Notes: a model not told the origin generated them from the sequence alone. Shown: positions 1,922 through 16,450, counted from the first letter of the stretch. The stretch is DNA of 27,551 bases from a virus (IMGVR_UViG_3300042566_001359), one strand, 5' to 3'. A program made the numbers and translations.

Positions 1922-1958
1922 TTGACAACAAAGGTTCTGCACTGGTATAATTTGGCGC
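1922..1958 (+). promoter_or_regulatory. GGCGC-type + strand promoter, copy 1
   Basis: TTGACA(1922-27)-18-TATAAT(1946-51)-TTGGCGC, with TGn extension. Confidence 0.75.
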
Positions 1959-2007
1959 AGACCGCAACAGACTAGGTGTAAAAATGTCGAGCTGACCAAA
2001 ACACCCA

Positions 2008-2046
2008 AAACAAAAGCCCCAAGAGTAGCTAACTCTTGGGGCTTTT
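2008..2046. terminator. strong bidirectional intrinsic terminator
   Basis: 15-bp perfect arms AAAAGCCCCAAGAGT/ACTCTTGGGGCTTTT with a 5-nt loop. On the - strand it is followed by UUUUGUUUU. Confidence 0.85.
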
Positions 2047-2276
2047 GAACAATCACGAGTGCACTCGCTGTTAGTTTTTAGTCTCACACGACGACTTACT
2101 GGGGGTACCACCCACGCTAACTGCATCGACCCTAAACTGGAGCACGGTCGCAGGGCATTAGGTTATTGCCTGTGTAGCTCTAGCAGGGGAGAAAGTATTG
2201 GTTCGGCTCTTCAGCCCACCACACGGTTTACGACACTGGGCTTTGTCGACTGCTATAGATTAACGACTGTTGCAGT

Positions 2277-2406
2277 TCGGGGTCGGGTGCTACGGTTCCA
2301 GCGCATGCACCACTTTTAGCGACTCGGGGTCGGGTGCTCCAGTCGAAGCTTTTGCACCACTTTTAACGACTTAGGGTCGAGTGCTCAGTTTGCGATAAGC
2401 ACCACT
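2277..2406. repeat. 47-bp-period repeat: 32-bp hairpin-forming units with 13-15-bp variable spacers
   Basis: GCACCACTTTTARCGACTYRGGGTCGRGTGCT at 2307-2338 and 2354-2385; partial copies at 2277-2291 and 2399-2406. Confidence 0.85.
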
Positions 2407-2649
2407 CAGGGGCCATTTAACGACAATCCGTGTCGGGCCACATTAACGAGGGCCAAGCTCGGGTACGTAAGTGCACCAGGCTGCCAAGACCATTTTACGT
2501 CGGTACCAGATAAGACGGCAGTTTATATAGTAACTGCTCACTAGGCTTACTCATTTCCAGCTAATCACTTTCAGTGGTGGGTCCATCCGGTTTTCGCTTT
2601 CGCTACTAGGCTTCAAGAGTCAGTCACATCCCGGTTTCGCTGGGTTTTC

Positions 2650-2751
2650 ATCCTGACCCTAAGGTACGGCAAGCGGTGATGTGGGAAAATCACGCACACT
2701 TGCTGTGAGGCCTTAAGGTTTCGCACAACTTGCATGTGCTCATCAGAGGGT
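2650..2751 (-). ncRNA. candidate type I hammerhead ribozyme
   Basis: Minus strand: ACCCU-CUGAUGA-GCACA(UGCAAGU)UGUGC-GAA-ACCUUAAGG[46 nt]CCUUAGGGU-C/AGGAU. This gives an intact core, a G-C closed stem II, a 9-bp stem III, a GUC cleavage triplet and a short stem I. Confidence 0.65.
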
Positions 2752-2965
2752 TGGTATCGCATACGGGTAACGATCCCGTCTAGGTACCTTGAAAGGGTAC
2801 TGACCTCACCTGAAGTCGAATGCGATATGTTAAATTAGCCACGCAGGTATTTTACTACTTACCATACGGAACATCGTCCAGATATTACGGGCTAAAAAGG
2901 TTGGGCTGCGACTAGAGTTTGTTCGGTCGCAATCAAGTTGTTATCCCAGCATCGAGTGCTGAGCC

Positions 2966-3323
2966 TCATAACACCCATAAGTTAATCGGCCAACGTAATG
3001 GTCCACACTCAAATCGTAGATATAGGATGCGTAAGCTAAGTTTTCTGGCTTAAAGGTTGCTGCCTTTCCATACTTCGCCGCTTACTCCAACAGAGCCTAT
3101 CGCCGTAACAATTATAGTTGCGCTACTAGATTACTGCCACCAGCAAGTAGCTGGCCGATTAACTTATGGATTCATAACACCCATAATAAAGTACCCAGCA
3201 AATTCTTGCAGAGTTGCAGCATTCTACCACTTTCGCCGTCTCGGCCGAGACCTACCGGTGGGGTTAATCTGCATACATCTAACAAGCAAACCAGGCTAGC
3301 ACTGTCTGGGTACTTTATTATGG
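2966..3323. repeat. two adjacent 18-bp perfect inverted-repeat pairs plus a 15-bp direct repeat
   Basis: 2975-2992/3152-3169 (CCATAAGTTAATCGGCCA) and 3181-3198/3306-3323 (CCATAATAAAGTACCCAG). TCATAACACCCATAA at 2966-2980 and 3172-3186. Confidence 0.9.
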
Positions 3324-3411
3324 ACACTAAGGGCTGTGGCTCGGTTCCCGAAGGTATTCCCCACAATTAAGACGCTGCTTGACGCGACCGCTGTCACCCA
3401 ATCTATACTAT

Positions 3412-3441
3412 ATTATAACATACAACAGTTAACATAATCAA
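3412..3441 (-). promoter_or_regulatory. sigma70 promoter at the head of the ncRNA candidate
   Basis: Minus strand TTGATT-18-TATAAT with TGn extension; +1 about 3405. Confidence 0.7.
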
Positions 3442-3483
3442 GATAATATTTAGTAGCCTTGTTAACTGCTGTTGTCTTATCGC

Positions 3484-3525
3484 TTTCTAAGTATATATTA
3501 TATCAAACTCAATTAACAAAATCAA
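3484..3525 (-). promoter_or_regulatory. sigma70 promoter, no ATG ORF downstream
   Basis: TTGATT-17-TATAAT. The -10/leader GATATAATATATACTTAGAAA is identical to that of the 3679-3720 promoter. Confidence 0.7.
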
Positions 3526-3678
3526 CAAAAGAATTCCAATCGTTTCCTCAAGACTAGCTTCGCAGGTGTGTCGACGTACAGTGACTGGTTAGTGATTGCG
3601 GCTGCTGAGGCAGAACTGGCACCGGTTGATTAATCACACGGTATTCATTAAGCCATTCCCGACTGGGTTCTTTGTTAA

Positions 3679-3720
3679 TTTCTAAGTATATATTATATCG
3701 CGAAATGGGTCACAGATCAA
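3679..3720 (-). promoter_or_regulatory. sigma70 promoter, no ATG ORF downstream
   Basis: TTGATC-17-TATAAT, with the same 21-nt -10/leader as 3484-3504. Confidence 0.7.
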
Positions 3721-3743
3721 GTGTAGATTTTGTGACCCTAAAC

Positions 3744-4055
3744 TTAAGCAAGTTCTGCAACCAGACGCTCAAGCACTTCGTGGTTGGCCTTTTCCAGGCT
3801 TTCAAACACTTCTGGAGCAACGCCGCAGGCAAGTGCCAGCTTGTCCACCAGTTCGGCTTTACGCACACGGTGTTGGCCGGTGGCCTTGGTTTTGGCCACG
3901 TACACGCCTTCGCGGCTGAGTTTGGCCACTACACTGCGTACGGTTTTGCCCAGGGTCTCGGCCAGTTGTTCCACGGTCTTGCCCGACTGGTAGCCTGTGA
4001 CGAGTTCCACGGTTTGCTCGGGAGTGTAGTTTTGAGGGGTTGCTTTAGTCATCAT
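3744..4055 (-). CDS. A2-like pre-early DNA-binding protein, paralogue 1
   Basis: NYTPEQT...GKTVRSVVAKLSREGVYVAKT...ESLEKAN. RBS AAAGGA before ATGATG (4055/4052). The longer ORF from 4331 is upstream read-through. Confidence 0.8.
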   Translation of the reverse strand: MMTKATPQNYTPEQTVELVTGYQSGKTVEQLAETLGKTVRSVVAKLSREGVYVAKTKATGQHRVRKAELVDKLALACGVAPEVFESLEKANHEVLERLVAELA

Positions 4056-4092
4056 ATGTCCTTTGGTTGGTTTCTGCGCTGTTGAAGATTCT

Positions 4093-4121
4093 ATTATACG
4101 TGAATCAGAAGGGAACATCAA
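4093..4121 (-). promoter_or_regulatory. pre-early-type promoter
   Basis: TTGATG-17-TATAAT-AGAATCTTCAAC. The leader is shared with the promoter at 5594-5621. Confidence 0.75.
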
Positions 4122-4236
4122 GATCAAAATTTTCGTCTTGAGTGGTAGTATCACAAAACATTTCCGATAGTTCCGCATCCACAAATTCATCGAATGCCGC
4201 ATACTGATACGCTGTGAAAAATTCGTTTGTTGCCAT
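4105..4236 (-). CDS. 43-aa acidic microprotein ending in DLDVPF
   Basis: Hand-translated MATNEFFTAYQYAAFDEFVDAELSEMFCDTTTQDENFDLDVPF. RBS AGGAG and its own promoter TTGCAG-17-TATAAT (4264-4292). Confidence 0.7.
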   Translation of the reverse strand: MATNEFFTAYQYAAFDEFVDAELSEMFCDTTTQDENFDLDVPF

Positions 4237-4308
4237 CTGCCGTTATCTCCTGTTGATGTAATAATTATACAAAACTTGGACACTTGCTGCAATATCAAAA
4301 ATTTCGTC

Positions 4309-4345
4309 TTGACACTGTAAAGCTTTTGCACTTATAATTTGGCGC
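4309..4345 (+). promoter_or_regulatory. GGCGC-type + strand promoter, copy 2
   Basis: TTGACA(4309-14)-18-TATAAT(4333-38)-TTGGCGC, followed by degenerate TTTTGCACTT...TGGCGCA repeats to about 4430. Confidence 0.7.
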
Positions 4346-4450
4346 AGCAAACCCTCAAGTTTTTGCACTTGACCGCGCACTGGCGCAAGGCCCAAGGTTT
4401 TGCACTTGACAAGGTTTCGCACTGGCGCAGCACGGTTACCGTGCTGGTTA

Positions 4451-4550
4451 AATTGTGACCCAGCAGTCACAAACTAGACCGATCAGTCGCAATCTATACC
4501 GATCAGTCGGTGACCAGACTGTTCAGTCGGCATCTATACTGTGCAGTCAC
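4451..4550. repeat. five degenerate 20-bp tandem repeats (iteron-like)
   Basis: Units start at 4451, 4471, 4491, 4511 and 4531, with CAGTC at the same offset in each (e.g. AAACTAGACCGATCAGTCGC, AATCTATACCGATCAGTCGG). Confidence 0.8.
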
Positions 4551-4652
4551 AAAATGCCTGGTACAGTATAATTATGACCGGGCGGTTTCGGCGCAAGAAT
4601 CGTGCCAGGTGGCACAAAAACAACACCCAATTGTAACAGTTTGTAACAGTCG

Positions 4653-4740
4653 TTGACACGGGCCGCAAAATTGTGGTATAATTTTGGCGCAGTTTTGCAA
4701 ACAAAAGTATTCATTTTTGTTTGCAAACAAAAGTACTCAT
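4653..4740 (+). promoter_or_regulatory. GGCGC-type promoter plus GCAAAC hairpin, copy 3
   Basis: TTGACA(4653)-18-TATAAT(4677)-TTTGGCGC. Hairpin TTTGCAAACAAAA-GTATTCAT-TTTTGTTTGCAAA at 4694-4727. Confidence 0.8.
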
Positions 4741-4753
4741 TTGTGGACAAAAT

Positions 4754-4778
4754 AAAACCCGCATAATAGCGGGTTATT
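4754..4778. terminator. intrinsic terminator, mainly - strand
   Basis: AACCCGC-ATAATA-GCGGGTT immediately after the stop at 4780. Confidence 0.7.
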
Positions 4779-4779
4779 A

Positions 4780-5025
4780 TTAAATAAATGCGGATCTGGG
4801 GATTTTAACCAATTGATTGAGATAATCAATCTCCCATTCATAATGGGCGAATGTCTCATAATCATAATCACCAGTCATTGCCAGCAAATAATCGGCGGCA
4901 ATATTAATATAGTTTGGCCGAATTTTGGAGAATGGCAAACCATTATAATCGCTTGGATTAATATCTAATTGGCAAAATGTGAGAATCACGGGTTTATCGG
5001 CAAAACTTGGCAAATTGAAAAGCAT
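4780..5025 (-). CDS. hypothetical 81-aa protein (MLFNLPSF...)
   Basis: RBS GAGGA 8 nt before ATG 5025, directly after the stop of the 5027-5164 ORF. Confidence 0.65.
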   Translation of the reverse strand: MLFNLPSFADKPVILTFCQLDINPSDYNGLPFSKIRPNYINIAADYLLAMTGDYDYETFAHYEWEIDYLNQLVKIPRSAFI

Positions 5026-5026
5026 T

Positions 5027-5164
5027 TTATTGTTCCTCAGAAAAGTAAACCACACGGTTAACGGCCGGCACATTATCATAATCCTGATTTTCTAAACCAG
5101 CTTCTTCTAATGTGAGAAAATCGGTTAAATCTTCCCATTGCATTTGGTCAACCAAATCAAACAT
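5027..5164 (-). CDS. 45-aa acidic microprotein
   Basis: MFDLVDQMQWEDLTDFLTLEEAGLENQDYDNVPAVNRVVYFSEEQ; RBS AAGGA. Confidence 0.65.
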   Translation of the reverse strand: MFDLVDQMQWEDLTDFLTLEEAGLENQDYDNVPAVNRVVYFSEEQ

Positions 5165-5184
5165 TATATTCCTTTTGAAAAAAT

Positions 5185-5229
5185 CCTATTATATGGGATA
5201 ATCCCATATAATAGGGCTTTCGCCCTATT
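5185..5229. repeat. 31-bp palindrome overlapping a GAAA-loop terminator-like hairpin
   Basis: CCTATTATATGGGAT-A-ATCCCATATAATAGG (5185-5215) and AATAGGGC-TTTC-GCCCTATT (5210-5229), just after the stop at 5232. Confidence 0.85.
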
Positions 5230-5231
5230 AA

Positions 5232-5564
5232 TCAAATTGGCTTAGAATTAGCCAATGCTGAAAAAATCTTTTCCAACGCCGTTTTATTGGCTTTTGTAAG
5301 AGATTCGATCTCATTTTCAGTCAATTTGAGAATCGCGCCGATTGCATCAGCGTGAGCATCTTTTTTGACTACTGGAGCACCAGTTTTGGAAACGTAGGTT
5401 TTAGCCACGTAAACTTTTTCGCGTGACAGTTTAGCCACAACTGAACGAACGGTTTTGCCCATGCTTTCAGCAATTGATTCCACTGTGACACCAGCCGCAT
5501 AATCGGCCACCATTTTAGCGGTTTGCTCTGCGGTATAGTTGACCGCCTTAGTTGCTTTTTCCAT
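5232..5564 (-). CDS. A2-like pre-early DNA-binding protein, paralogue 2
   Basis: GKTVRSVVAKLSREKVYVAKTYVSKTG and ESLTKANKTAL. RBS AAAGGA; promoter TTGCAA-16-TATAAT at 5594-5621. Confidence 0.85.
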   Translation of the reverse strand: MEKATKAVNYTAEQTAKMVADYAAGVTVESIAESMGKTVRSVVAKLSREKVYVAKTYVSKTGAPVVKKDAHADAIGAILKLTENEIESLTKANKTALEKIFSALANSKPI

Positions 5565-5753
5565 TTTGATTTCCTTTCAGTGTTGAAGATTCTATTATAT
5601 CAGGTTTTTGGCTTTTTGCAAGAAAAAAGAAAATTTATTTTTCTTTTCTTGATCTGCTACCAAATCCGATCATTTGGTGGCATGAGTCTATTATACTGGG
5701 TTTTTGCCTAAAAAGTCAGGTGTGCGAAAATACAACATAGGTGGAAACCCCTA

Positions 5754-5861
5754 TTGACAACCTGAAAAATCCGTGGTATAATTTGGCGCCAACTATATAA
5801 GCATTTGCTTATATAAGCAAACACGCATGAATTTTTGGCGCCCACACCCAATTATACCACG
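5754..5861. promoter_or_regulatory. GGCGC-type promoter copy 4, TATATAAGCA palindrome and a facing - strand extended -10
   Basis: TTGACA(5754)-17-TATAAT(5777)-TTGGCGCC; palindrome at 5794-5815; CGTGGTATAATT (5772-83) inverted at 5850-61. Confidence 0.75.
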
Positions 5862-5912
5862 AAAATCCGTTGTTTTTTAATCCCCTACAAAAAATAAGTT
5901 ATACGAAAAAAC

Positions 5913-6004
5913 TTGACACGGGCCAAAATCATATGCTATAATTTTGGCGCAGTTTTGAAAACAAAAGTATTCATTTTTCAAAATGCAAACTTTTGTTTTC
6001 AAAA
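5913..6004 (+). promoter_or_regulatory. GGCGC-type promoter plus hairpin variant, copy 5
   Basis: TTGACA(5913)-18-TATAAT(5937)-TTTGGCGC. 16-bp inverted repeat TTTTGAAAACAAAAGT at 5953-68/5989-6004. Confidence 0.8.
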
Positions 6005-6008
6005 TGGC

Positions 6009-6030
6009 AAAAGCCCCACCTGGGGGCTTT
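6009..6030. terminator. bidirectional intrinsic terminator
   Basis: AAAAGCCCC-ACCTG-GGGGCTTTT, adjacent to the stop at 6033. Confidence 0.8.
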
Positions 6031-6032
6031 TA

Positions 6033-6284
6033 TTATCTTTTTGGTTTAATCTTATAATATAAGATAATCCCAATAAATACGATGTTGGCGGTATAGTTGA
6101 ATATCAGGGGCCAATGCCATTTAGGGATAATATAAATAATAGTGAATATCTCACCAACGCCCCACATAATCAAAAAACTCCAAGTTAATCCGTCCGAGTT
6201 TTTGGTTTTATAAGATTCTATTGCTTGTGGTAATCCACAAAATGCCAATAATATAGAACCAATCCAGCCAATATATTCCATCAT
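6033..6284 (-). CDS. PQ-loop/SemiSWEET-family small membrane protein
   Basis: 83 aa, three hydrophobic segments, LPQAIESYKTKNSDGLTW PQ-loop signature; RBS GGAG. Confidence 0.8.
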   Translation of the reverse strand: MMEYIGWIGSILLAFCGLPQAIESYKTKNSDGLTWSFLIMWGVGEIFTIIYIIPKWHWPLIFNYTANIVFIGIILYYKIKPKR

Positions 6285-6397
6285 TTGATTATCTCCGTGA
6301 TAGTTTGAATTTGAAAAGGGTTAGTATCATATCTAGAATCTAACCGTTTATCTTCTGAAAAGTGCAAAACCAGTGCAATAATCCAAAGTATTTTCAT
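6281..6397 (-). CDS. 38-aa microprotein with hydrophobic N-terminus
   Basis: MKILWIIALVLHFSEDKRLDSRYDTNPFQIQTITEIIK; its stop overlaps the next start (ATGA). Confidence 0.5.
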   Translation of the reverse strand: MKILWIIALVLHFSEDKRLDSRYDTNPFQIQTITEIIK

Positions 6398-6434
6398 TTG
6401 GTTAATAATCGGGGTTATTAGCCCCGATTATTAT

Positions 6435-7133
6435 TTATTTTGCAACAAACCAGTTTTTAGTTTGAAAATCGCGCCAATTATAAGGCTTGATATTATCTTT
6501 CCAATTGCGTTTTTTGAGTATGGCTTTCAAAATCGGCAATTCAAAATCACGGGCATCTTCTAATGCGGTATGCGGTTCTTTTACAAACTCGCCATTAATA
6601 AAACCGCATACAATCTCCGCATTAGTTTGGAAAGTCATATTACCCTGAACAGTGGGTTTATTAAATGCGTGATTATCAAGGGCAAATTGGCGATAATCTT
6701 TTTTATTGCAAATATTACCAACTGAAGCAGACCACAAACAAAACTCTTGAGTAAAACCCGATAAATCAATTCCAGTATTAAGGCATTTTGATTTATCAAA
6801 AGCCAGATTATAGGCAGTCAATTGGGGATTATATTTGCCAATGGCTTGGTTAATCCATTTATTAATGGCATTAACTGAAGCCACCATTCTAGTGCCATTA
6901 TCTAACATAATAGCATAATTGGATTTACGTTTTTCCAAACCAGAATAACCCCAAATATCATTGGCCGCTTTATCATGAAACAATTCATGAGTGCCATAAT
7001 GACCGGCAACTAATACCGCACATTGATTATAAATTTTGCCTTCGCGGTCAACGATAATAATCGCAAAATCTGCGACTGTATCGGCCATTGTGGTTTCTGT
7101 ATCGAGAATCGCAAAATACTGTTTTTTAGCCAT
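6435..7133 (-). CDS. DEDDh (DnaQ-like) 3'-5' exonuclease
   Basis: ExoI LDTETT, ExoII YNLAFD, ExoIII HTALED. Probable start MAKKQYF at 7133. Confidence 0.85.
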   Translation of the reverse strand: MAKKQYFAILDTETTMADTVADFAIIIVDREGKIYNQCAVLVAGHYGTHELFHDKAANDIWGYSGLEKRKSNYAIMLDNGTRMVASVNAINKWINQAIGKYNPQLTAYNLAFDKSKCLNTGIDLSGFTQEFCLWSASVGNICNKKDYRQFALDNHAFNKPTVQGNMTFQTNAEIVCGFINGEFVKEPHTALEDARDFELPILKAILKKRNWKDNIKPYNWRDFQTKNWFVAK

Positions 7134-7243
7134 TTGGTTTCCAATTACCGGATACTGCCGGAATTCGCAGATTGTAGCGTTTTGCTGCAATAGAGTTATT
7201 ATACCCGATATTTTAGGAAATCGGGCAAAACCTGCAAATTATT

Positions 7244-7459
7244 TTAAAAAAAGTTGTTGTAAATTCCCAACAAGTTTGCCAAGAAAAATGTACCATTTAG
7301 TACACCAAGCGAACGATCACGGCGAACAAAAGCCACAATCAACCACGACAAAGAACCAAAAGTAAACAAAACGTACCCCAATTTAAACATTGCGCTTGCA
7401 ACTGCAAACGAACCCAAAATTGAAACCAAAGTACCAAACCAACTGAGAATATTAAGCAT
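7244..7459 (-). CDS. 71-aa three-TM membrane protein (possibly PnuC/SemiSWEET-like)
   Basis: MLNILSWFGTLVSILG...GSLSW...LNGTFFLANLLGIY. The start overlaps the SprT-like gene stop. Confidence 0.7.
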   Translation of the reverse strand: MLNILSWFGTLVSILGSFAVASAMFKLGYVLFTFGSLSWLIVAFVRRDRSLGVLNGTFFLANLLGIYNNFF

Positions 7460-7835
7460 TTTTTGTAATCGCCATTTTGTGAAAAGGATTTGCAGGTAAA
7501 CCATATTCTAACATGATTTTTTGCCAATTTTCGCCATGCCCGCAAATTTTTTCGGATTCGCCAAAAAGATTATAATCGGCTTGATGGATAATTTCATGCG
7601 GAAGTATTACATCAATCATTGTATTGAAGTATTCTGGTTTAGCTTTGAAAAATTTGTAACCCAAATGTATGCGGTTTTCAGTTTGAAAACATTTGCCAGC
7701 GCAACGCCAAATGTAAGGGTTAAGTTCTATCTTAGGCTCATTGTAGTGAACCAGTGGAGTATAAATTTCGCAAAGTGTATCCCAAATCATTACAGTCTCA
7801 CGCTGTATGAGGGTTAAGAGTGATTTTTTGTCCAT
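7452..7835 (-). CDS. SprT-like zinc metalloprotease
   Basis: PHEIIHQ (HExxH) plus GHGENWQKIM (HG..W) motif. Start MDKKS at 7835, apparently leaderless. Confidence 0.8.
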   Translation of the reverse strand: MDKKSLLTLIQRETVMIWDTLCEIYTPLVHYNEPKIELNPYIWRCAGKCFQTENRIHLGYKFFKAKPEYFNTMIDVILPHEIIHQADYNLFGESEKICGHGENWQKIMLEYGLPANPFHKMAITKNA

Positions 7836-7890
7836 GCTGAAATTATACCCCAATAAAACCCGATTTTTTCGCAGATCACATAAAAAGAAG

Positions 7891-7916
7891 TGTAACAGTT
7901 GGCCCACGCTGTTACA
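7891..7916. promoter_or_regulatory. operator-like inverted repeat TGTAACA-N12-TGTTACA
   Basis: TGTAACAG-10-CTGTTACA. The same 26-bp geometry occurs at 8939-8964. Confidence 0.6.
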
Positions 7917-7946
7917 ATTATTTATGTTGTTTTTTTGCAAAACCCC

Positions 7947-8028
7947 TTGACAGGGGCTAAAATTATGTGGTATAATTTTGGCGCAAACTGCAAACCAAAG
8001 TATTCATTTTGGTTTGCAAACAAAAGTG
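7947..8028 (+). promoter_or_regulatory. GGCGC-type promoter plus GCAAAC hairpin, copy 6
   Basis: TTGACA(7947)-18-TATAAT(7971)-TTTGGCGC. Hairpin TGCAAACCAAA-GTATTCAT-TTTGGTTTGCA at 7989-8018; the element abuts the stop at 8029. Confidence 0.8.
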
Positions 8029-8181
8029 TTACCTGTCAAAAATGAAATTTTTATATTCTCGCAGATTATCACGATAATTAAAAGTCATAATCATAAGAAC
8101 CGGCAACATTAATGTAATCAATATTTTATCCGGGCGATTATAAACAAAGTGTTTGATTAATCTTGCAAATGCTTTAATCAT
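8029..8181 (-). CDS. 50-aa hypothetical protein with a hydrophobic segment
   Basis: RBS AAGGA 7 nt before ATG 8181 (MIKAFARL...). Confidence 0.6.
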   Translation of the reverse strand: MIKAFARLIKHFVYNRPDKILITLMLPVLMIMTFNYRDNLREYKNFIFDR

Positions 8182-8182
8182 T

Positions 8183-8338
8183 TTATTTTCCTTGTTTATA
8201 TTTTCTACGATGTTGTTCAATATCTATGGTAACCCATTCAAATGCTTGTTTAATACCTATATAAATATATCCAAGTAACAGAACCGGAATTAAAAGATAT
8301 TCAAGATAATATGAAGCAATAAACCAGAATTTTTTCAT
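8183..8338 (-). CDS. 51-aa single-TM microprotein with basic tail
   Basis: MKKFWFIASYYLEYLLIPVLLLGYIYIGIKQAFEWVTIDIEQHRRKYKQGK; RBS GGAG. Confidence 0.65.
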   Translation of the reverse strand: MKKFWFIASYYLEYLLIPVLLLGYIYIGIKQAFEWVTIDIEQHRRKYKQGK

Positions 8339-8350
8339 TATATTCTCCAA

Positions 8351-8370
8351 ATAATCCCCTAGGGGATTAT
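8351..8370. repeat. 20-bp perfect palindrome after the dmp-like gene
   Basis: ATAATCCCCTAGGGGATTAT. Confidence 0.85.
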
Positions 8371-8373
8371 ATT

Positions 8374-8850
8374 TTAGTGACCTTGTTTGCTTGGAACATA
8401 AACCCCGCGAATATTAAAGCGATCACAAACCGCTTTTAAATAAGTGGTATTATCCTCATAAAATGTAAATTCAGCATCACGGAAATTCTTTAAATTAAAG
8501 AATTTAGCCAAACCCGCAATTTTGAGTTTACCGCCTGAAGTAGTATCACCATCACAACGACTGATAATATAATCAGGCTCACCCAAAACAGTTTTAATAA
8601 ACTCATTATCAGCATCACGCAAAACTCGCGCAGTGGCAATAATCACAAAAGTATTATCGTCTTGCAAATCTTTACGATATTGGGATGCTAATGGCAATAA
8701 TGAATCATCCATTGCACGATATTCATTCTGTCTCCAATAATCCAAATCAATACGTTCGCCATTATCGTCAACGATTGTACGATATCTGTGCAAACTGCAA
8801 ACAATAGTACCATCCATATCGTAAATCGAAACCTTTGTGATCTTAGCCAT
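8374..8850 (-). CDS. dmp: HAD-family deoxynucleoside-5'-monophosphatase (T5 Dmp-like)
   Basis: HAD motifs YDMDGT, ATAR, K, YEDN. The N-terminus ITKVSIYDMDGTIVCSLHR...DSLLPL...NTFVIIATAR parallels T5 Dmp as recalled. RBS AAGGA. Confidence 0.8.
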   Translation of the reverse strand: MAKITKVSIYDMDGTIVCSLHRYRTIVDDNGERIDLDYWRQNEYRAMDDSLLPLASQYRKDLQDDNTFVIIATARVLRDADNEFIKTVLGEPDYIISRCDGDTTSGGKLKIAGLAKFFNLKNFRDAEFTFYEDNTTYLKAVCDRFNIRGVYVPSKQGH

Positions 8851-8938
8851 TTTGCATCCTTGTGCGTTGTTGATGTAGTAATTATATCACGGGTTTAGGG
8901 ATTGTCTAGGCTTTTTTTGTTGTTGAGACAAAATAAAG

Positions 8939-9081
8939 TGTAACAATTGGCGGCGACTGTTACAATTGTTTTTTGCACAAACGGGCTTTTGTATGGTATA
9001 ATTATGTGGTGGTAATGTGTGCCAAAAATTTGGCGCCAACTTGCAAACAAAAGTATTCATTTTTGTTTGCAAACCAAAGCG
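8939..9081 (+). promoter_or_regulatory. TGTAACA operator, promoter and GGCGC/GCAAAC hairpin, copy 7 (with insertion)
   Basis: Inverted repeat at 8939-8964; TTGCAC(8973)-18-TATAAT(8997); TTGGCGCC at about 9030; hairpin at 9041-9072; abuts the stop at 9082. Confidence 0.7.
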
Positions 9082-9252
9082 TTACAATTTACCTTCCATT
9101 ATCAATTGACGTTCCGCATACAAAAGTATTCGTTTTTTATCCGCCTCACCTTCGCAATTTGGATATTCTAATTCTTTTTCAAGTTTATTAAAATATTCCA
9201 CCAATTCACACATTTTGCGAGTTAACTCATATTGTGGTTTGATAGTAATCAT
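9082..9252 (-). CDS. 56-aa hypothetical protein
   Basis: MITIKPQYELTRKMCELVEYFNKLEKELEYPNCEGEADKKRILLYAERQLIMEGKL; RBS AGGA. Confidence 0.65.
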   Translation of the reverse strand: MITIKPQYELTRKMCELVEYFNKLEKELEYPNCEGEADKKRILLYAERQLIMEGKL

Positions 9253-9254
9253 TT

Positions 9255-9386
9255 TCAGCATCCTGTCATCATTGCAAAATAATCTTCAAATTCTTGATCT
9301 GTCCAAACCCAACTAGGGCAGGTATTCATAAGCATATCATAATATATGCCGGACAAATTGTGGACAATGTAGGTGTTTGTGTTCAT
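9255..9386 (-). CDS. 43-aa hypothetical protein, apparently leaderless
   Basis: MNTNTYIVHNLSGIYYDMLMNTCPSWVWTDQEFEDYFAMMTGC; TGC-TATAAT-6 nt-ATG. Confidence 0.6.
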   Translation of the reverse strand: MNTNTYIVHNLSGIYYDMLMNTCPSWVWTDQEFEDYFAMMTGC

Positions 9387-9467
9387 AGGTGTATTATAGC
9401 AAAGAATCAAGCCTTTGACGATTGTATTTATTAATCAGCCCGATTTAAAAAATCAATCATGTAAGCG

Positions 9468-9600
9468 TTGACACGGGCACAAATTGTGTGGTATAATTTG
9501 GCGCCCATATATAAGCATATGCTTATATATGGATACGCTGATATATGGGCTGGGCGCAGTTGCAAACCAAAGTATTATATTTGGTTTGCAAACAAAAGTG
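9468..9600 (+). promoter_or_regulatory. GGCGC-type promoter, 28-bp palindrome and GCAAAC hairpin, copy 8
   Basis: TTGACA(9468)-18-TATAAT(9492)-TTGGCGC; CCATATATAAGCATATGCTTATATATGG (9505-32); hairpin at 9560-9591; abuts the stop at 9601. Confidence 0.8.
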
Positions 9601-9921
9601 TTAATTAAACATCATATCGCGCACAGCTTCTGCAACTTCTTCATTGCAGCGACATTGTACAGGCACAGCCCAAAATGCTCCACAATTCAAACGCTCAAGT
9701 GCAATATACTCGCCCATTTTGCGCTTGAATTCATCATCTTTAAAATCACATTGTGCGATTGCAACGTGGACAAACTCACTGCACAAATTGCCAGGCATTG
9801 CAGGCACAACCACCACGGTCAAGCCTTCTGCGGCAAAGCTAAAGATTTCACCGCCAGCACCCTCAACATTTTCTTTGAGTGCTTTACGGTATGCCTTTTG
9901 TTCACGGTTCAATTTAGTCAT
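9601..9921 (-). CDS. phage hypothetical protein
   Basis: 106 aa; RBS GGAG; own -10 at about 9946-51. Contains an A.C...D.F.RK.G..IAL.R motif common in small phage proteins. Confidence 0.75.
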   Translation of the reverse strand: MTKLNREQKAYRKALKENVEGAGGEIFSFAAEGLTVVVVPAMPGNLCSEFVHVAIAQCDFKDDEFKRKMGEYIALERLNCGAFWAVPVQCRCNEEVAEAVRDMMFN

Positions 9922-9965
9922 GTTACATTCTCCAGTTAAAAAACAATTATATCACAATGGTGGAT

Positions 9966-9986
9966 TGTAGGGGCAAAGCCCCTACA
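9966..9986. terminator. terminator-like hairpin after A2 paralogue 3
   Basis: TGTAGGGGC-AAA-GCCCCTACA. Confidence 0.65.
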
Positions 9987-9991
9987 GTTTA

Positions 9992-10315
9992 TCAGGTCTT
10001 TTCAGCCTTGATGAAATCCGCAATGGCTTTCAATGCTGTTTTGTTGGCTTTTGTCAGCGATTCAACATCAGCTTCATTCAAGCCCAATGCATCACCAATG
10101 TAATCGGCAACAGCATCCTTTTTGATTACAGCCTCACCAGTTTTGGATACATAAGTCTTAGCCACATAAACTTTCTCACGCGAAAGCTTGGCAACCACAG
10201 AACGCACAGTTTTGCCCAATGCTTCAGCAATGGTTTCCACAGTTTTACCGGCTTGATAGTCGGCAACCATTTGCAGGGTTTGCTCAGGGGTATAGTTCAC
10301 AGTTTTAGCAGTCAT
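9992..10315 (-). CDS. A2-like pre-early DNA-binding protein, paralogue 3
   Basis: Shares a 27-aa identical core GKTVRSVVAKLSREKVYVAKTYVSKTG with 5232-5564; RBS AAAGGA. Confidence 0.85.
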   Translation of the reverse strand: MTAKTVNYTPEQTLQMVADYQAGKTVETIAEALGKTVRSVVAKLSREKVYVAKTYVSKTGEAVIKKDAVADYIGDALGLNEADVESLTKANKTALKAIADFIKAEKT

Positions 10316-10328
10316 TTCAATTTTCCTT

Positions 10329-10415
10329 TCAGGGTTTCATTACAAAAGCAAAGTATATCACAAAAGGCAGGGCAATGCAAGCCATTGCCAACACCATGTC
10401 AAAAAATTCACGCAT
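10329..10415 (-). CDS. 28-aa single-TM microprotein
   Basis: MREFFDMVLAMACIALPFVIYFAFVMKP. The start overlaps the upstream stop (ATGCGTGA). Confidence 0.55.
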   Translation of the reverse strand: MREFFDMVLAMACIALPFVIYFAFVMKP

Positions 10416-10602
10416 TTTTAGCCTCACATTCGGCCGCATAAGCCAACATATTTTGTGCATCACACAGTGCATTATATGCTTTGCGAACCAAAGTATCCTT
10501 ATCGATACCTTCGCTATTTTGAGCACGATAGTATGCAACCAATTTTTCAGCATATGCAAGAGCAAGTGTTTGTGTTTGTGTCATAGTGTCTTTCGTTGTC
10601 AT
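10408..10602 (-). CDS. 64-aa helical hypothetical protein, first gene of the - strand cluster
   Basis: ORF track; TATAAT (10609-14)-6 nt-ATG. Confidence 0.65.
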   Translation of the reverse strand: MTTKDTMTQTQTLALAYAEKLVAYYRAQNSEGIDKDTLVRKAYNALCDAQNMLAYAAECEAKNA

Positions 10603-10864
10603 GGGTTTATTATATCATGCTTTTGCAGTTGGTCAACAGTTTAATTGAACTGTTACAAACTGTTACATGTTAGCTAGTTGGTTCACAAATCTGTTAGGAA
10701 ACAAAAGTACTCATATTATAGTAGGTTTACAAACAAACTGACTAGGGGCGGTTAGTAGACTAAAGTTTACACATACGCCGTGGCACCCACCCACACGCGG
10801 CCTATGGGGTAAAAATCCCAAAACCATCTGGGTGCCGTACCATGCCTCAGCCGACCCTAAACCG

Positions 10865-10975: not shown

Positions 10976-11452
10976 ATGCAACAAAACCTACCTGCTGAAA
11001 CACTGCAAATTGCCCCAGAAATGTTGGAAGTGGCCAACTGCTACCTGCAACTATGTGACGCCCGACGTGTGGCTGATGAGCTGGACTTGGCTCCAACACT
11101 GGTCACCGAGATCTTAGCCCGACGCGAGGTCAAAGCGTATATCGACCATGTGTTCATGGACACTGGCTACAACAACAAGTTTCAAATGCGTGCTGCCATG
11201 GACGCACTGCTCAAACAAAAGTTTCAAGAGCTGCATGAATCCCAAACTGGCAGCACCAAGGATATTGCTGAGCTGCTACAAATATCGCATAAAATGAGCA
11301 TGGATTTACTAGACCGTGAAATTCAGTTGGAAAAACTGCGTCAGGGTCCAGGCGGCCCCAGCAAACAAGTAAACGTTCAAATCAATGAAGGACTAGACGG
11401 ATCAAAGTATTCGCAGCTGGTGTCACGTCTTATTAGTGGTGAAGGAGTCTAA
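10976..11452 (+). CDS. terS: terminase small subunit, T5-type
   Basis: 158 aa with N-terminal HTH and EVKAYIDHVFMDTGYNN...KDIAELLQISHKM, matching the T5 TerS pattern. Its stop overlaps the terL start. Confidence 0.85.
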   Translation: MQQNLPAETLQIAPEMLEVANCYLQLCDARRVADELDLAPTLVTEILARREVKAYIDHVFMDTGYNNKFQMRAAMDALLKQKFQELHESQTGSTKDIAELLQISHKMSMDLLDREIQLEKLRQGPGGPSKQVNVQINEGLDGSKYSQLVSRLISGEGV

Positions 11453-14524: not shown

Positions 14525-16450
14525 ATGGTAGATAAAAGTAAAGTACTGTTTATAAACAGTTCTTTTACAAAGAGCAGTCTACCTGCCGCAGACGAAGCTG
14601 ATGAAAGCGTAACCATTGAAGGTTATGCATCCACAGTTGACGTTGATAGACATGGTGATATTGTTCCTGCCAGCGTGTGGGAAAAAGGTGTCGAGAACTA
14701 CTTGAAAAATCCAGTAATTCTTGCATACCACAATCACAGTGAACCTATCGGCAGGATGATCGAGCATCGCGTTGACGCAAAAGGTTTGTGGATTAAAGCC
14801 CGAATCTCTAAAGCGGCTGGAGATGTTTTTAGTCTTGTAAAAGACGGCGTGCTAACCGCCTTTAGCATTGGTTTCCGTATCGCTGATGCGGAATATAATT
14901 CAGCCTTAGAGCTGTTTGTTGTAAAAGAACTGGAACTGCACGAAATATCAGTTGTGAGTGTTCCAGCTAATCAAAATACACTATTTAGTCTTTCTAAGGC
15001 GTTTGACACGGCCGAAGAATTTAAGAGTTTCAAACTGCAATTTGCTAACCCAAGCAACTCAGCTAAAGGGCTAGAAGCCTCCGGCGAAGCAAAAAGCGAA
15101 ATTAACGAGGAATGGAAAATGGATCCAAAAGAACTACAAAAAATGTTGGCTGACGCTGCTACTGCTGCTGCCGAACAAGCCACTAAGTCTCTGCTAGCTG
15201 CTCAAGAAAAAGCTGCTACTGAAAAAGCTGCTGCCGATGCGCAACAAGCTGACCTAGACGCAAAAATCAAAGCTGCTGTTGCACTAGCAACACCAAGCAC
15301 AACTGGTGCTGAAGCACTACTAGCCGAAGTTGAGAAGCGTTTTGCTGCTCAAGCCGACGAAACTAAGTCTGTTGTTGCAGGCCTAGAAGCTAGCCTAAAA
15401 GAGAAGGCAGCTGAATTAGAAGCCATTCAAAAATCACGTATGCAATTCACAGACGGCAAAGCCGGTGAAATGTCTTATGCTGACAAAGAAAAGGCTGTTA
15501 TCCTAGCTAAAATGGCTGGTAAGGGTTTAGCTGACACTAAGTTTGGCCGTGAAATGGTACAAAAGTATGGTGCTCACCTGCCAAGCGATGTATGGGAACT
15601 AGAAGTTTCATTAAACATGGAAAACGAAGTTCGCCGTCGTTTAGTTGTTGCTCCTAACCTACGTGGTATTGCAATGCAAACCAACGTGATGACTATTCCT
15701 GTGAACCCAGAAGCTGGTGTTGCAACATGGATGGCTAACACAGCATTCGGTACAACAGCCTCAGCTGGTAGCAACGCAACACACGCGCTAAAAGAAATCA
15801 CTCTAAACGCGTACAAAGTTGCCACAAACGAATACGTTGCCTACGAAGAAGAAGAAGACAGTTTACTGGCAATTATGCCTGTTATCCGTGACGCCATGGT
15901 TCGCCGTGTTGCTCGCGCTGTTGACCGTGCTATGCTACGTGGTGCAGGTACAGGTTCAGACCCAGTTAAAGGTCTAGCAACCTATGATATCGCCAGTGCA
16001 GTTACACTAGATATCAGCGATGCTGCTAAAATGACAGTTGCAAAACTACAAGCTATGCGTCGTGACCTAGGTGCTTGGGGTCTAGATCCTTCAGAACTAG
16101 TTTACATCGTAAGCACAGAAGGTTACTACGACCTGCTAGAAGACACAAACTTCCTAACAGTCGACAAAGTTGGTCAACAAGCCACTCTGTTAACTGGTCA
16201 AATCGGTGCAGTTGGTAACACTCCAGTTATCGTAAGCGCTGAATTTGCAGACAAAGCTGCTGACGCTGTTGGCGCTATCTGTTTTGCACCAGGTAACTTC
16301 TTGGTTGGTAATCAACGCGGTCTACGTGTTGACACACAAGACCTAGTAGAAACACAACGTCGTGTTATGGTAGCTAGCCTACGTACTGGCATGACTCAAG
16401 TTACAACTAACCTAGGCCCAGCAGTTTCGGCCCTACGTTTCGTAGCTTAA
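14525..16450 (+). CDS. prohead protease fused in frame to HK97-fold major capsid protein
   Basis: N-terminal about 198 aa: IEGYAST, YHNHSEPIG, FSIGF, EISVVSVPAN. Then an alanine-rich delta/scaffold region and the capsid. Internal GAGGA-7 nt-ATG at 15119. Confidence 0.92.
   Translation: MVDKSKVLFINSSFTKSSLPAADEADESVTIEGYASTVDVDRHGDIVPASVWEKGVENYLKNPVILAYHNHSEPIGRMIEHRVDAKGLWIKARISKAAGDVFSLVKDGVLTAFSIGFRIADAEYNSALELFVVKELELHEISVVSVPANQNTLFSLSKAFDTAEEFKSFKLQFANPSNSAKGLEASGEAKSEINEEWKMDPKELQKMLADAATAAAEQATKSLLAAQEKAATEKAAADAQQADLDAKIKAAVALATPSTTGAEALLAEVEKRFAAQADETKSVVAGLEASLKEKAAELEAIQKSRMQFTDGKAGEMSYADKEKAVILAKMAGKGLADTKFGREMVQKYGAHLPSDVWELEVSLNMENEVRRRLVVAPNLRGIAMQTNVMTIPVNPEAGVATWMANTAFGTTASAGSNATHALKEITLNAYKVATNEYVAYEEEEDSLLAIMPVIRDAMVRRVARAVDRAMLRGAGTGSDPVKGLATYDIASAVTLDISDAAKMTVAKLQAMRRDLGAWGLDPSELVYIVSTEGYYDLLEDTNFLTVDKVGQQATLLTGQIGAVGNTPVIVSAEFADKAADAVGAICFAPGNFLVGNQRGLRVDTQDLVETQRRVMVASLRTGMTQVTTNLGPAVSALRFVA

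Follow-up and report, generated by a model that had tools for sequence, protein, structure and literature searches.

Repeated promoter-like elements facing the genes of a T5-like pre-early-type array in uncultured freshwater phages

Introduction

What does a phage gain from near-consensus promoters that have no gene to drive? The question is raised by the viral DNA stretch IMGVR_UViG_3300042566_001359 (the window, meaning the whole 27,551 nucleotides analysed), in which an array of small genes on the − strand is interspersed with + strand promoter-like elements that end in TTGGCGC and point back into the genes. A sequence-only reading of the window had listed eight such promoters and offered several explanations for them: a multicopy family of short RNAs, RNA polymerase sinks or collision-based shut-off of pre-early genes, transcription that pulls or brakes the DNA during injection, and homology blocks for cassette exchange. 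Absent from that reading were a palindrome across the −10 region, GGCGC-hairpin units that have no promoter, a resemblance to the nick sites of phage T5, and the distribution of the element across a whole phage group. Here, we describe the element and weigh what it may do. Its anatomy, conservation and orientation, the mosaic of its flanks, and the homology of its surroundings to the T5 pre-early region are read directly from the sequences compared.

Probable backward promoters in the window

An exact search of the window for TTGACA-N16-19-TATAAT-N0-2-TTGGCGC returns seven sites, all on the + strand, at 1922, 4309, 4653, 5754, 5913, 7947, and 9468. The chance expectation is zero, since 100 dinucleotide-preserving shuffles contain no match. 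Between 1700 and 11000, these seven are also the only sites that match the promoter consensus at 12 of 12 positions. All of them have the −35 and −10 hexamers with the spacer of 17 ± 1 bp expected of bacterial sigma-70 promoters, the actual spacers being 17–18 bp, and six of the seven carry the extended −10 element TGn, as does the variant at 8974. This eighth copy, reported earlier at 8973, is real but degenerate: the −35 hexamer reads TGCACA, and the TTGGCGC box is displaced 27 nt further downstream. The earlier description of eight promoters, mostly with TGn, thus stands.

Every long open reading frame (ORF) between 3744 and 10602 lies on the − strand, and several have family matches that support this strand. 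Each window copy has an opposite-strand ORF downstream, which bears out the earlier statement that the promoters drive no gene and face genes instead. Small + strand ORFs downstream of the promoters were considered as real genes and none is credible; a + strand ORF at 2059–2319, downstream of the copy at 1922, is known from the ORF listing alone. As had been proposed, the copies at 1922, 4653, and 5913 run into terminator-like hairpins with T-tracts, which end 81–91 nt after GGCGC. The copies at 7947, 8973, and 9468 likewise converge on − strand genes with stops at 8029, 9082, and 9601, and the perfect hairpins of copies 7947, 9030, and 9468 end about 10 nt before these stops.

A T5-like pre-early setting

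The window comes from a distant T5-like siphophage. Pfam identifies a large terminase, a portal, a protease-capsid fusion, a head completion protein, and a T5 p143-like domain, and the large terminase TerL (at 11452) is about 50% identical to TerL of 113–117 kb Vibrio Demerecviridae. In the fusion, one ORF of 641 aa (14525–16450) joins Peptidase_S78 (prohead protease) to Phage_capsid (major capsid). The phage is recorded only from lake and freshwater metagenomes.

The "pre-early" label given earlier to the array is supported by two kinds of protein match. The ORF at 8374–8850 matches T5 dmp by BLASTP (E 3e-15), both proteins falling in phrog_415, and four small helix-turn-helix (HTH) proteins of the window match phrog_1725, the family type of T5 A2 (E 4e-7 to 2e-4). 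The array adjoins the terminase side and ends, at its far side, in a repeat-rich stretch free of ORFs (2059–3740), as in T5. By these sequence comparisons, the array is homologous to the T5 pre-early region. An A1 homologue was not seen in the window.

Three of the HTH paralogues lie within the array and the fourth at 1371–1691 on the + strand; phrog_323 (D5-like) is matched too. Related phages keep three to four copies, and these proteins are candidate binders of the repeated palindromes. The wider repeat-rich region (2008–3740, about 1.7 kb) has no credible ORF, dense repeats, and strong pairing; Rfam finds nothing in it, and ARAGORN places a tRNA-Glu (UUC) at 2752–2826 on its − strand. It occupies the place of the T5 injection stop signal.

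Distribution and conservation

Scanning IMG/VR with the same pattern finds the motif in at least 118 contigs, many with 2–7 copies. The counts given below for listed copies refer to the copies among the matches listed together with those of the window (n = 242). Three complete or near-complete relatives of about 100 kb carry 5–7 copies each, on one strand and within about 6 kb. Perfect TTGACA-N16-18-TATAAT sites number 10–12 per relative genome, and most are inside that stretch.

The orientation is shared. Among 232 listed copies, the downstream ORF lies on the opposite strand in 179 and on the same strand in 53, and 154 listed copies are enclosed by ORFs of the opposite strand. Wherever a relative could be placed in synteny, its promoters point toward TerL and its array genes away from it. 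When only TATAAT-N-TGGCGC is used as an anchor, the −35 hexamer is perfect in 210 of the 242 listed copies and has one mismatch in a further 26. When 15 modules are aligned, their homology sets in precisely at TTGACA; the −35, the −10, and GGCGC do not vary, and the upstream flanks are of unrelated types. Conservation confined to the hairpins had been named as the outcome that would speak against promoters, and the reverse was found, since the −35 and −10 are the most conserved parts and the hairpins vary. Consensus and conservation together indicate that the sites are probably real sigma-70 promoters.

Neither the region nor the 38-mer consensus has a nucleotide match among 50,697 phage records. 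The cluster is missing upstream of the terminase in a cultured T5-like phage of Vibrio whose TerL is 49% identical, and T5 has no such element in its first 13 kb. A scan of bacterial genomes gave 100 stretches, mostly single hits in unrelated metagenome-assembled genomes (MAGs), which is about the estimated chance number and offers no clue to the host. The 103-kb record JAYUWM010000074.1 and several short MAG-binned contigs have 2–4 motif copies each; these are probably mis-binned phages of this group. At the core, contigs are joined or end loosely (4690/4691, 5912/5913, 5950/5951, and 7947); these may be assembly jumps, the repeat exceeding the assembly word length, and they are not used as evidence. 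The element is in no cultured phage of the collection searched, which for now limits its practical value.

The palindrome across the −10 region

In most copies the spacer mirrors the −10 hexamer and the discriminator, giving the arrangement GCCAAAATTATA-N3-TATAATTTTGGC. This palindromic class comprises 156 of 210 listed copies, is centred near −15, and is 27–31 bp long. The match between the two arms is strict: the discriminators TTGG, TTTGG, ATTGG, and TTTTGG occur only with the matching spacers CAAATTAT, CAAAATTAT, CCAATATTAT, and CAAAAATTAT, respectively, and this holds even between copies of one genome. A formal pair count shows double changes from A-U to U-A, with 96% of cells paired as compared with at most 48% when the partner columns are slid. 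The extended −10 prefers TRTG, and this confounds any reading of wobble pairs in the palindrome. The palindrome was also considered as a promoter for the gene strand and rejected, the mirrored TATAAT having neither a −35 nor TGn.

A distant echo of the palindrome is seen in T5 itself (AY543070). At about 60–114 on the − strand, near the extreme left end and pointing off the genome, there is a TTGAAA-17-TAAAAT site in which the spacer and the initial transcribed bases are inverted repeats of each other on either side of the −10 (TGTTTCACCCTGCAA / TTGCAGGGTGAAACA).

The GGCGC box, hairpins, and termination

Past GGCGC lies a near-perfect palindrome, in many copies right beside the stop codon at which the converging gene ends. 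Its stem has a median length of 12 bp and begins 0–5 nt past GGCGC in 118 of 210 listed copies. In listed copies the first 60 nt past the box fold at −19 kcal/mol as compared with −9 for shuffled sequence, and the predicted + strand RNAs of the window have fold z-scores of −3.7 to −7.4. Hairpin sequences are of many types across copies, and Rfam gives no gathering-score match in the whole window.

Stems are almost free of wobble pairs. In a first count, the mismatches that could pair as G-U seemed to favour the gene strand (25 on the − strand, 7 on the +), but the bias disappears when only the first hairpin is counted and sequences are clustered (6 versus 9). The pattern fits a hairpin that is read from both directions or a palindrome that acts at the DNA level.

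A canonical + strand terminator lies within 125 nt in 61 of 209 listed copies (29%) as compared with 6 in shuffled sequence. With so few canonical terminators, most transcripts are predicted to read antisense into the neighbouring gene. The proposed short-RNA family therefore holds only for a subset of copies.

GGCGC followed by a hairpin also occurs without a promoter, for example at 4377–4447, 9030, and 9552 in the window. Across 36 loci, SCACTKGCGC boxes number 69 on the promoter strand and 9 on the other.

Cassette shuffling

Related phages share the gene set of the array and differ in its order, with insertions and deletions. The flanks of the conserved core are mosaic. On the left there are 104 types and on the right 85, and 141 different pairings of the two are seen; the most frequent type on either side is combined with 10 types on the other. 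Left and right types are associated above random and far from completely. Such a multitude of combinations is the expected product of recombination within the shared core, and the earlier suggestion of homology blocks for cassette exchange fits both the mosaic flanks and the shuffled order. As to the check proposed with it, whether breakpoints fall in these elements, order is shuffled and flanks are mosaic, but homology blocks mostly stop where genes end, throughout and not at the modules in particular.

A model for the backward promoters

The reading that we favour, tentatively and with somewhat less than even confidence, is that the backward promoters have two roles, closing each cassette through head-on transcription and providing a patch for recombination. 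Transcription, termination, interference, and the mechanism of recombination enter this model as predictions. A cassette end would consist of a variable upstream element, the 38-bp core, the GGCGC box, the near-perfect palindrome, and sometimes a terminator, placed at the 3' end of a pre-early-type transcription unit and pointing back into it. At this very strong sigma-70 promoter, host RNA polymerase would begin RNA synthesis at GGCGC or immediately downstream of it and pass through the hairpin. Roughly one copy in three would then end transcription at a two-way terminator, yielding a hairpin RNA of 35–95 nt; from the remaining copies, polymerase would continue into the converging gene in antisense. 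Whether sitting at the cassette end or initiating there, polymerase would block sense read-through to the next cassette and damp the sense gene, and each small cassette would become a closed unit. The 38-bp core may act as a homology patch for exchange and reordering among related phages because it is nearly identical between copies.

Of the ideas offered earlier, a polymerase sink or collision-based shut-off is plausible. Transcription that pulls the DNA in is unlikely, because the promoters face the end that probably enters first, as placed by analogy with T5.

Several points weigh against this model. Of about 11 sense units in the window, such a promoter closes only 6 and the rest finish at a plain hairpin, which implies that the element is dispensable for ending a unit. 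A gene that faces a perfect promoter from the first second of infection would have lowered expression, which looks costly. Interference explains neither the retention of GGCGC, nor the promoter-less GGCGC-hairpin units, nor the strict palindrome of spacer and discriminator. The related loci were gathered with the full motif as search pattern, which biases them toward intact copies, and their genes are crude longest-ORF calls. No RNA run among those listed contains this phage; two wastewater runs labelled RNA-seq contain pieces of relatives and may be DNA.

Alternative explanations

Beside head-on closure stand the readings set out below, of which the nick-type, small-RNA, and switch ones are not mutually exclusive.

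An unlikely explanation is a DNA-level site related to the nicks or the injection stop of T5: the GGCGC box (TTG^GCGC), together with its hairpin, would be a target for single-strand cleavage or for binding by a phage protein. The role of the promoter might then be to open or mark this site; alternatively, nicking of the non-template strand might keep the promoter open on relaxed linear DNA. All major nicks of T5 are on the TerL strand and so are all boxes here, the T5 7.9% nick and its hairpin resemble the window unit at 4377–4447, and the promoter-less boxes have the strand preference given above. Co-variation of the palindrome within one genome would point to pairing of nucleic acid rather than to a fixed protein site. 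The T5 consensus is not reproduced in full, however: GCGCRGG occurs in none of the seven window boxes, which continue after G^GCGC with AGA, AGC, AGT, CAA, AGT, AAA, and CCA. Nick sites of T5 have no promoter and are spread genome-wide, whereas the boxes here cluster in about 7 kb, and GCGC is a short motif. More doubtful still, and highly so, is the specific proposal that the box at the backward start site is the counterpart of a T5 nick, with promoter opening or palindrome extrusion exposing the non-template strand to the nicking activity of the phage, or with a nick holding the promoter open. If true, it would tie the unexplained T5-like nicks to transcription of the DNA that enters first.

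The copies might instead encode a multicopy family of trans-acting or decoy small RNAs with a 5' hairpin and with host or phage targets, which also seems unlikely. Modules 1, 3, and 5 do look like small RNAs (5' hairpin, A/U-rich single strand, terminator with U-tail; z −5.6 to −7.4). A hairpin 0–5 nt from the start reportedly stabilises bacterial RNAs (Emory, Bouvet, and Belasco 1992), and the arrangement here matches. The box AAAGTAYTCAT occurs 7 times on the + strand as compared with 1.7 expected, and only inside the array, but no complementary target is found in the window outside the modules, which counts against this reading. So do the scarcity of canonical terminators, the many unrelated hairpin types, which imply that there is no common seed, and the failure to match any Rfam family; the near absence of G-U pairs would be unusual for selection on a single RNA strand.

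Decidedly unlikely is a regulated switch, in which the −10 palindrome would be an operator for an A2-type dimer or a supercoil-dependent cruciform, and the backward promoters would fire at one stage only, for example at pre-early shut-off. The palindrome is present in most listed copies, three or four A2-family DNA-binding paralogues are encoded in the array, and TGTAACAG repeats lie upstream of some modules. Cruciform extrusion at a −10 palindrome is reported to be able to switch a promoter (Horwitz and Loeb 1988). The half-sites, however, vary within a genome and still match their partners, which is unexpected for a sequence-specific protein, and a quarter of the copies have no palindrome. 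A Q-like read-through to the late genes is also unlikely, given an antisense gene and the hairpin at 9958–9994 ahead of the terminase genes.

Finally, a selfish or neutral intergenic repeat, or an injection ratchet or brake without gene control in which RNA polymerase bound at many strong sites holds the first-entered DNA, is very unlikely: the modules do behave like mobile repeats, with the same upstream and hairpin types beside different genes, and the cluster is confined to what would be the first-entering region by T5 analogy, but among genomes with genes only 30–90% identical, a neutral repeat would hardly have retained the −35, the spacing, TGn, and the −10 in perfect form more than 200 times, and the promoters face the probable leading end (by T5 analogy), which is the wrong way for pulling.

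Features of the array

Coordinates of the modules and of the genes around them are collected in Table 1.

Table 1. Modules, associated hairpins, and genes of the array (window coordinates).
Feature	Position	Strand	Description
Module 1	1922–1958	+	TTGACA-18-TGgTATAAT-TTGGCGC; non-palindromic GCACTGG class
Terminator hairpin, 16 bp	2011–2047		A-tract and T-tract flanks; z −7.4 for 1955–2052; predicted end of the ~90-nt + RNA of module 1; also faces the − non-coding unit 2008–3405
Module 2	4309–4345	+	TTGACA-18-TATAAT-TTGGCGC; without TGn; GCACT class
Two promoter-less GCACTGGCGC boxes	4377–4386, 4419–4428 (unit 4377–4447)	+	Second box followed by hairpin AGCACGG-TTA-CCGTGCT
Module 3, promoter	4653–4690	+	Two TGTAACAG repeats upstream, at 4632 and 4642
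Module 3, downstream part	4695–4781	+	GCAAAC hairpin 4695–4726; second GCAAACAAAAGTACTCAT repeat; z −5.6; terminator 4751–4781 adjoins stop of ORF 4780–5079
Module 4	5754–5841	+	Promoter 5754–5789; hairpin 5794–5815 inside inverted repeat GCGCCAA...TTGGCGC (5786–5841)
Module 5	5913–6031	+	Promoter 5913–5950; long hairpin 5949–6008; terminator 6009–6031, adjoining stop of ORF 6033–6284; z −6.9
Module 6	7947–8028	+	Promoter 7947–7984; GCAAAC hairpin 7989–8018; repeat to 8028; directly abuts stop of − ORF 8029–8220; TGTAACAG palindrome upstream at 7891–7916
Module 7 (degenerate)	8974–9081	+	TGCACA-17-TGgTATAAT 8974–9002; TTGGCGC 9030–9036; GCAAAC hairpin 9041–9072; then stop of − ORF 9082–9261
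Module 8	9468–9600	+	Promoter 9468–9504; outer hairpin 9501–9557 (GCGCCC...GGGCGC); GCAAAC hairpin 9560–9591; z −5.0; then stop of − ORF 9601–9921
Gene array, ~17 small genes	3744–10602	−	Each gene with its own promoter matching 10–11 of 12 positions
A2-family HTH paralogues	3744–4052, 5232–5564, 9992–10315	−	phrog_1725 matches
PQ-loop protein	6033–6284	−	Family match
SprT-like protein	7452–7835	−	Family match
dmp-like HAD phosphatase	8374–8850	−	BLASTP and phrog_415

The repeat TGTAACAG occurs 8 times as compared with 1.3 expected (at 4632–4649, 7891–7916, 8957–8964, and 10650–10667). Ahead of some modules and of the first − strand promoter it is arranged in pairs, direct or inverted, and it is probably a protein-binding site.

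Other small features concern the gene strand. A perfect palindrome with 14-bp arms at 5185–5215, CCTATTATATGGGATTATCCCATATAATAGG, has TATAAT on both strands and looks like the terminator of ORF 5232–5564 combined with the −10 of the next − strand gene. In several genes on the − strand, TATAAT stands only 6–7 nt before ATG (7835–7860, 9393–9421, and 10602–10636; TATAATttcagcATG at 7835), and from this distance messages with little or no leader are predicted. At the head of the array (10690–10744), a lone GnAAACAAAAGTACTCAT box overlaps the −10 and start of a − strand promoter matching 10 of 12 positions (TAGTCA-18-TATAAT); read on the − strand, it gives TATAAT-ATGAGTACTTTTGTTTCC.

Comparison with known systems

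In phage lambda, the OOP RNA is transcribed from pO, and convergent transcription is ended at two-way terminators. The likeness is that a promoter downstream of a gene aims at the 3' end of this gene and that some copies would give a short terminated RNA with a shared terminator. Lambda, however, has one copy, whereas here there are 5–8 per genome with a perfect consensus and a fixed GGCGC, and modules 3 and 5 overlap the sense message only at the terminator. A Q-type antitermination promoter (lambda pR' / 6S RNA), in which a strong promoter and a nearby terminator precede co-directional late genes, was considered as well and rejected, in view of the antisense genes and the terminator-like + strand hairpin (9958–9994) that precede the terminase and because only 29% of copies have a close terminator.

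Phages T5 and BF23 carry site-specific single-chain interruptions; the major nicks of T5 occur at the consensus R^GCGCRGG (PMC3517423). In the T5 genome (AY543070), matches to it are found on the TerL strand at the expected positions of all five major nicks, of which the nick at 9748 is annotated. The 7.9% nick reads TTTGCACAAAA^GCGCAGG, followed by a hairpin, and lies inside the injection stop signal repeats (DRD-repeat/nick unit). The corresponding place and strand of the window show TTTGCACT...GCACTG-GCGCAG, again with a hairpin behind it (4377–4447). Common to both are a GCGC core preceded by a purine, confinement to the TerL-sense strand, adjacent TTTGCAC repeats, and the same neighbourhood. 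The T5 sites differ in being promoter-less and scattered over the genome, and the RGG tail is not kept in the promoter-linked boxes here. The resemblance is short and suggestive. If GGCGC were a nick site, the element would offer an entry to the unexplained function of the T5 nicks.

The closest parallel is to the promoter-early stem-loop (PeSL) cassettes of T4-type phages (Arbiol et al. 2010, PMC2839356; Comeau et al. 2014, PMC4122927). In both cases a near-perfect TTGACA-N17-TATAAT promoter and a stem-loop or terminator are repeated in the gaps between small variable early genes. PeSLs are tied to gene insertion, deletion, and shuffling, to which the differing gene order and the 141 flank combinations correspond here. 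PeSL promoters, however, drive the adjacent gene, whereas about three quarters of listed copies and all window copies of the present element face an opposite-strand ORF; the phage is T5-like rather than T4-like; and the GGCGC box and the −10 palindrome are additions. The element fits best as a PeSL-type unit with its orientation inverted. Our literature searches found no description of it.

In a large group of uncultured freshwater phages, then, the strongest promoters of the genomes are used on no gene, in one orientation and in one region. This arrangement points to a layer of control on the first-expressed phage genes, which would act via head-on transcription, via a DNA-level site, or both. 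Nothing comparable has been described for T5-like phages, and the element provides an example, outside the T4 group, of regulatory repeats able to drive cassette shuffling.

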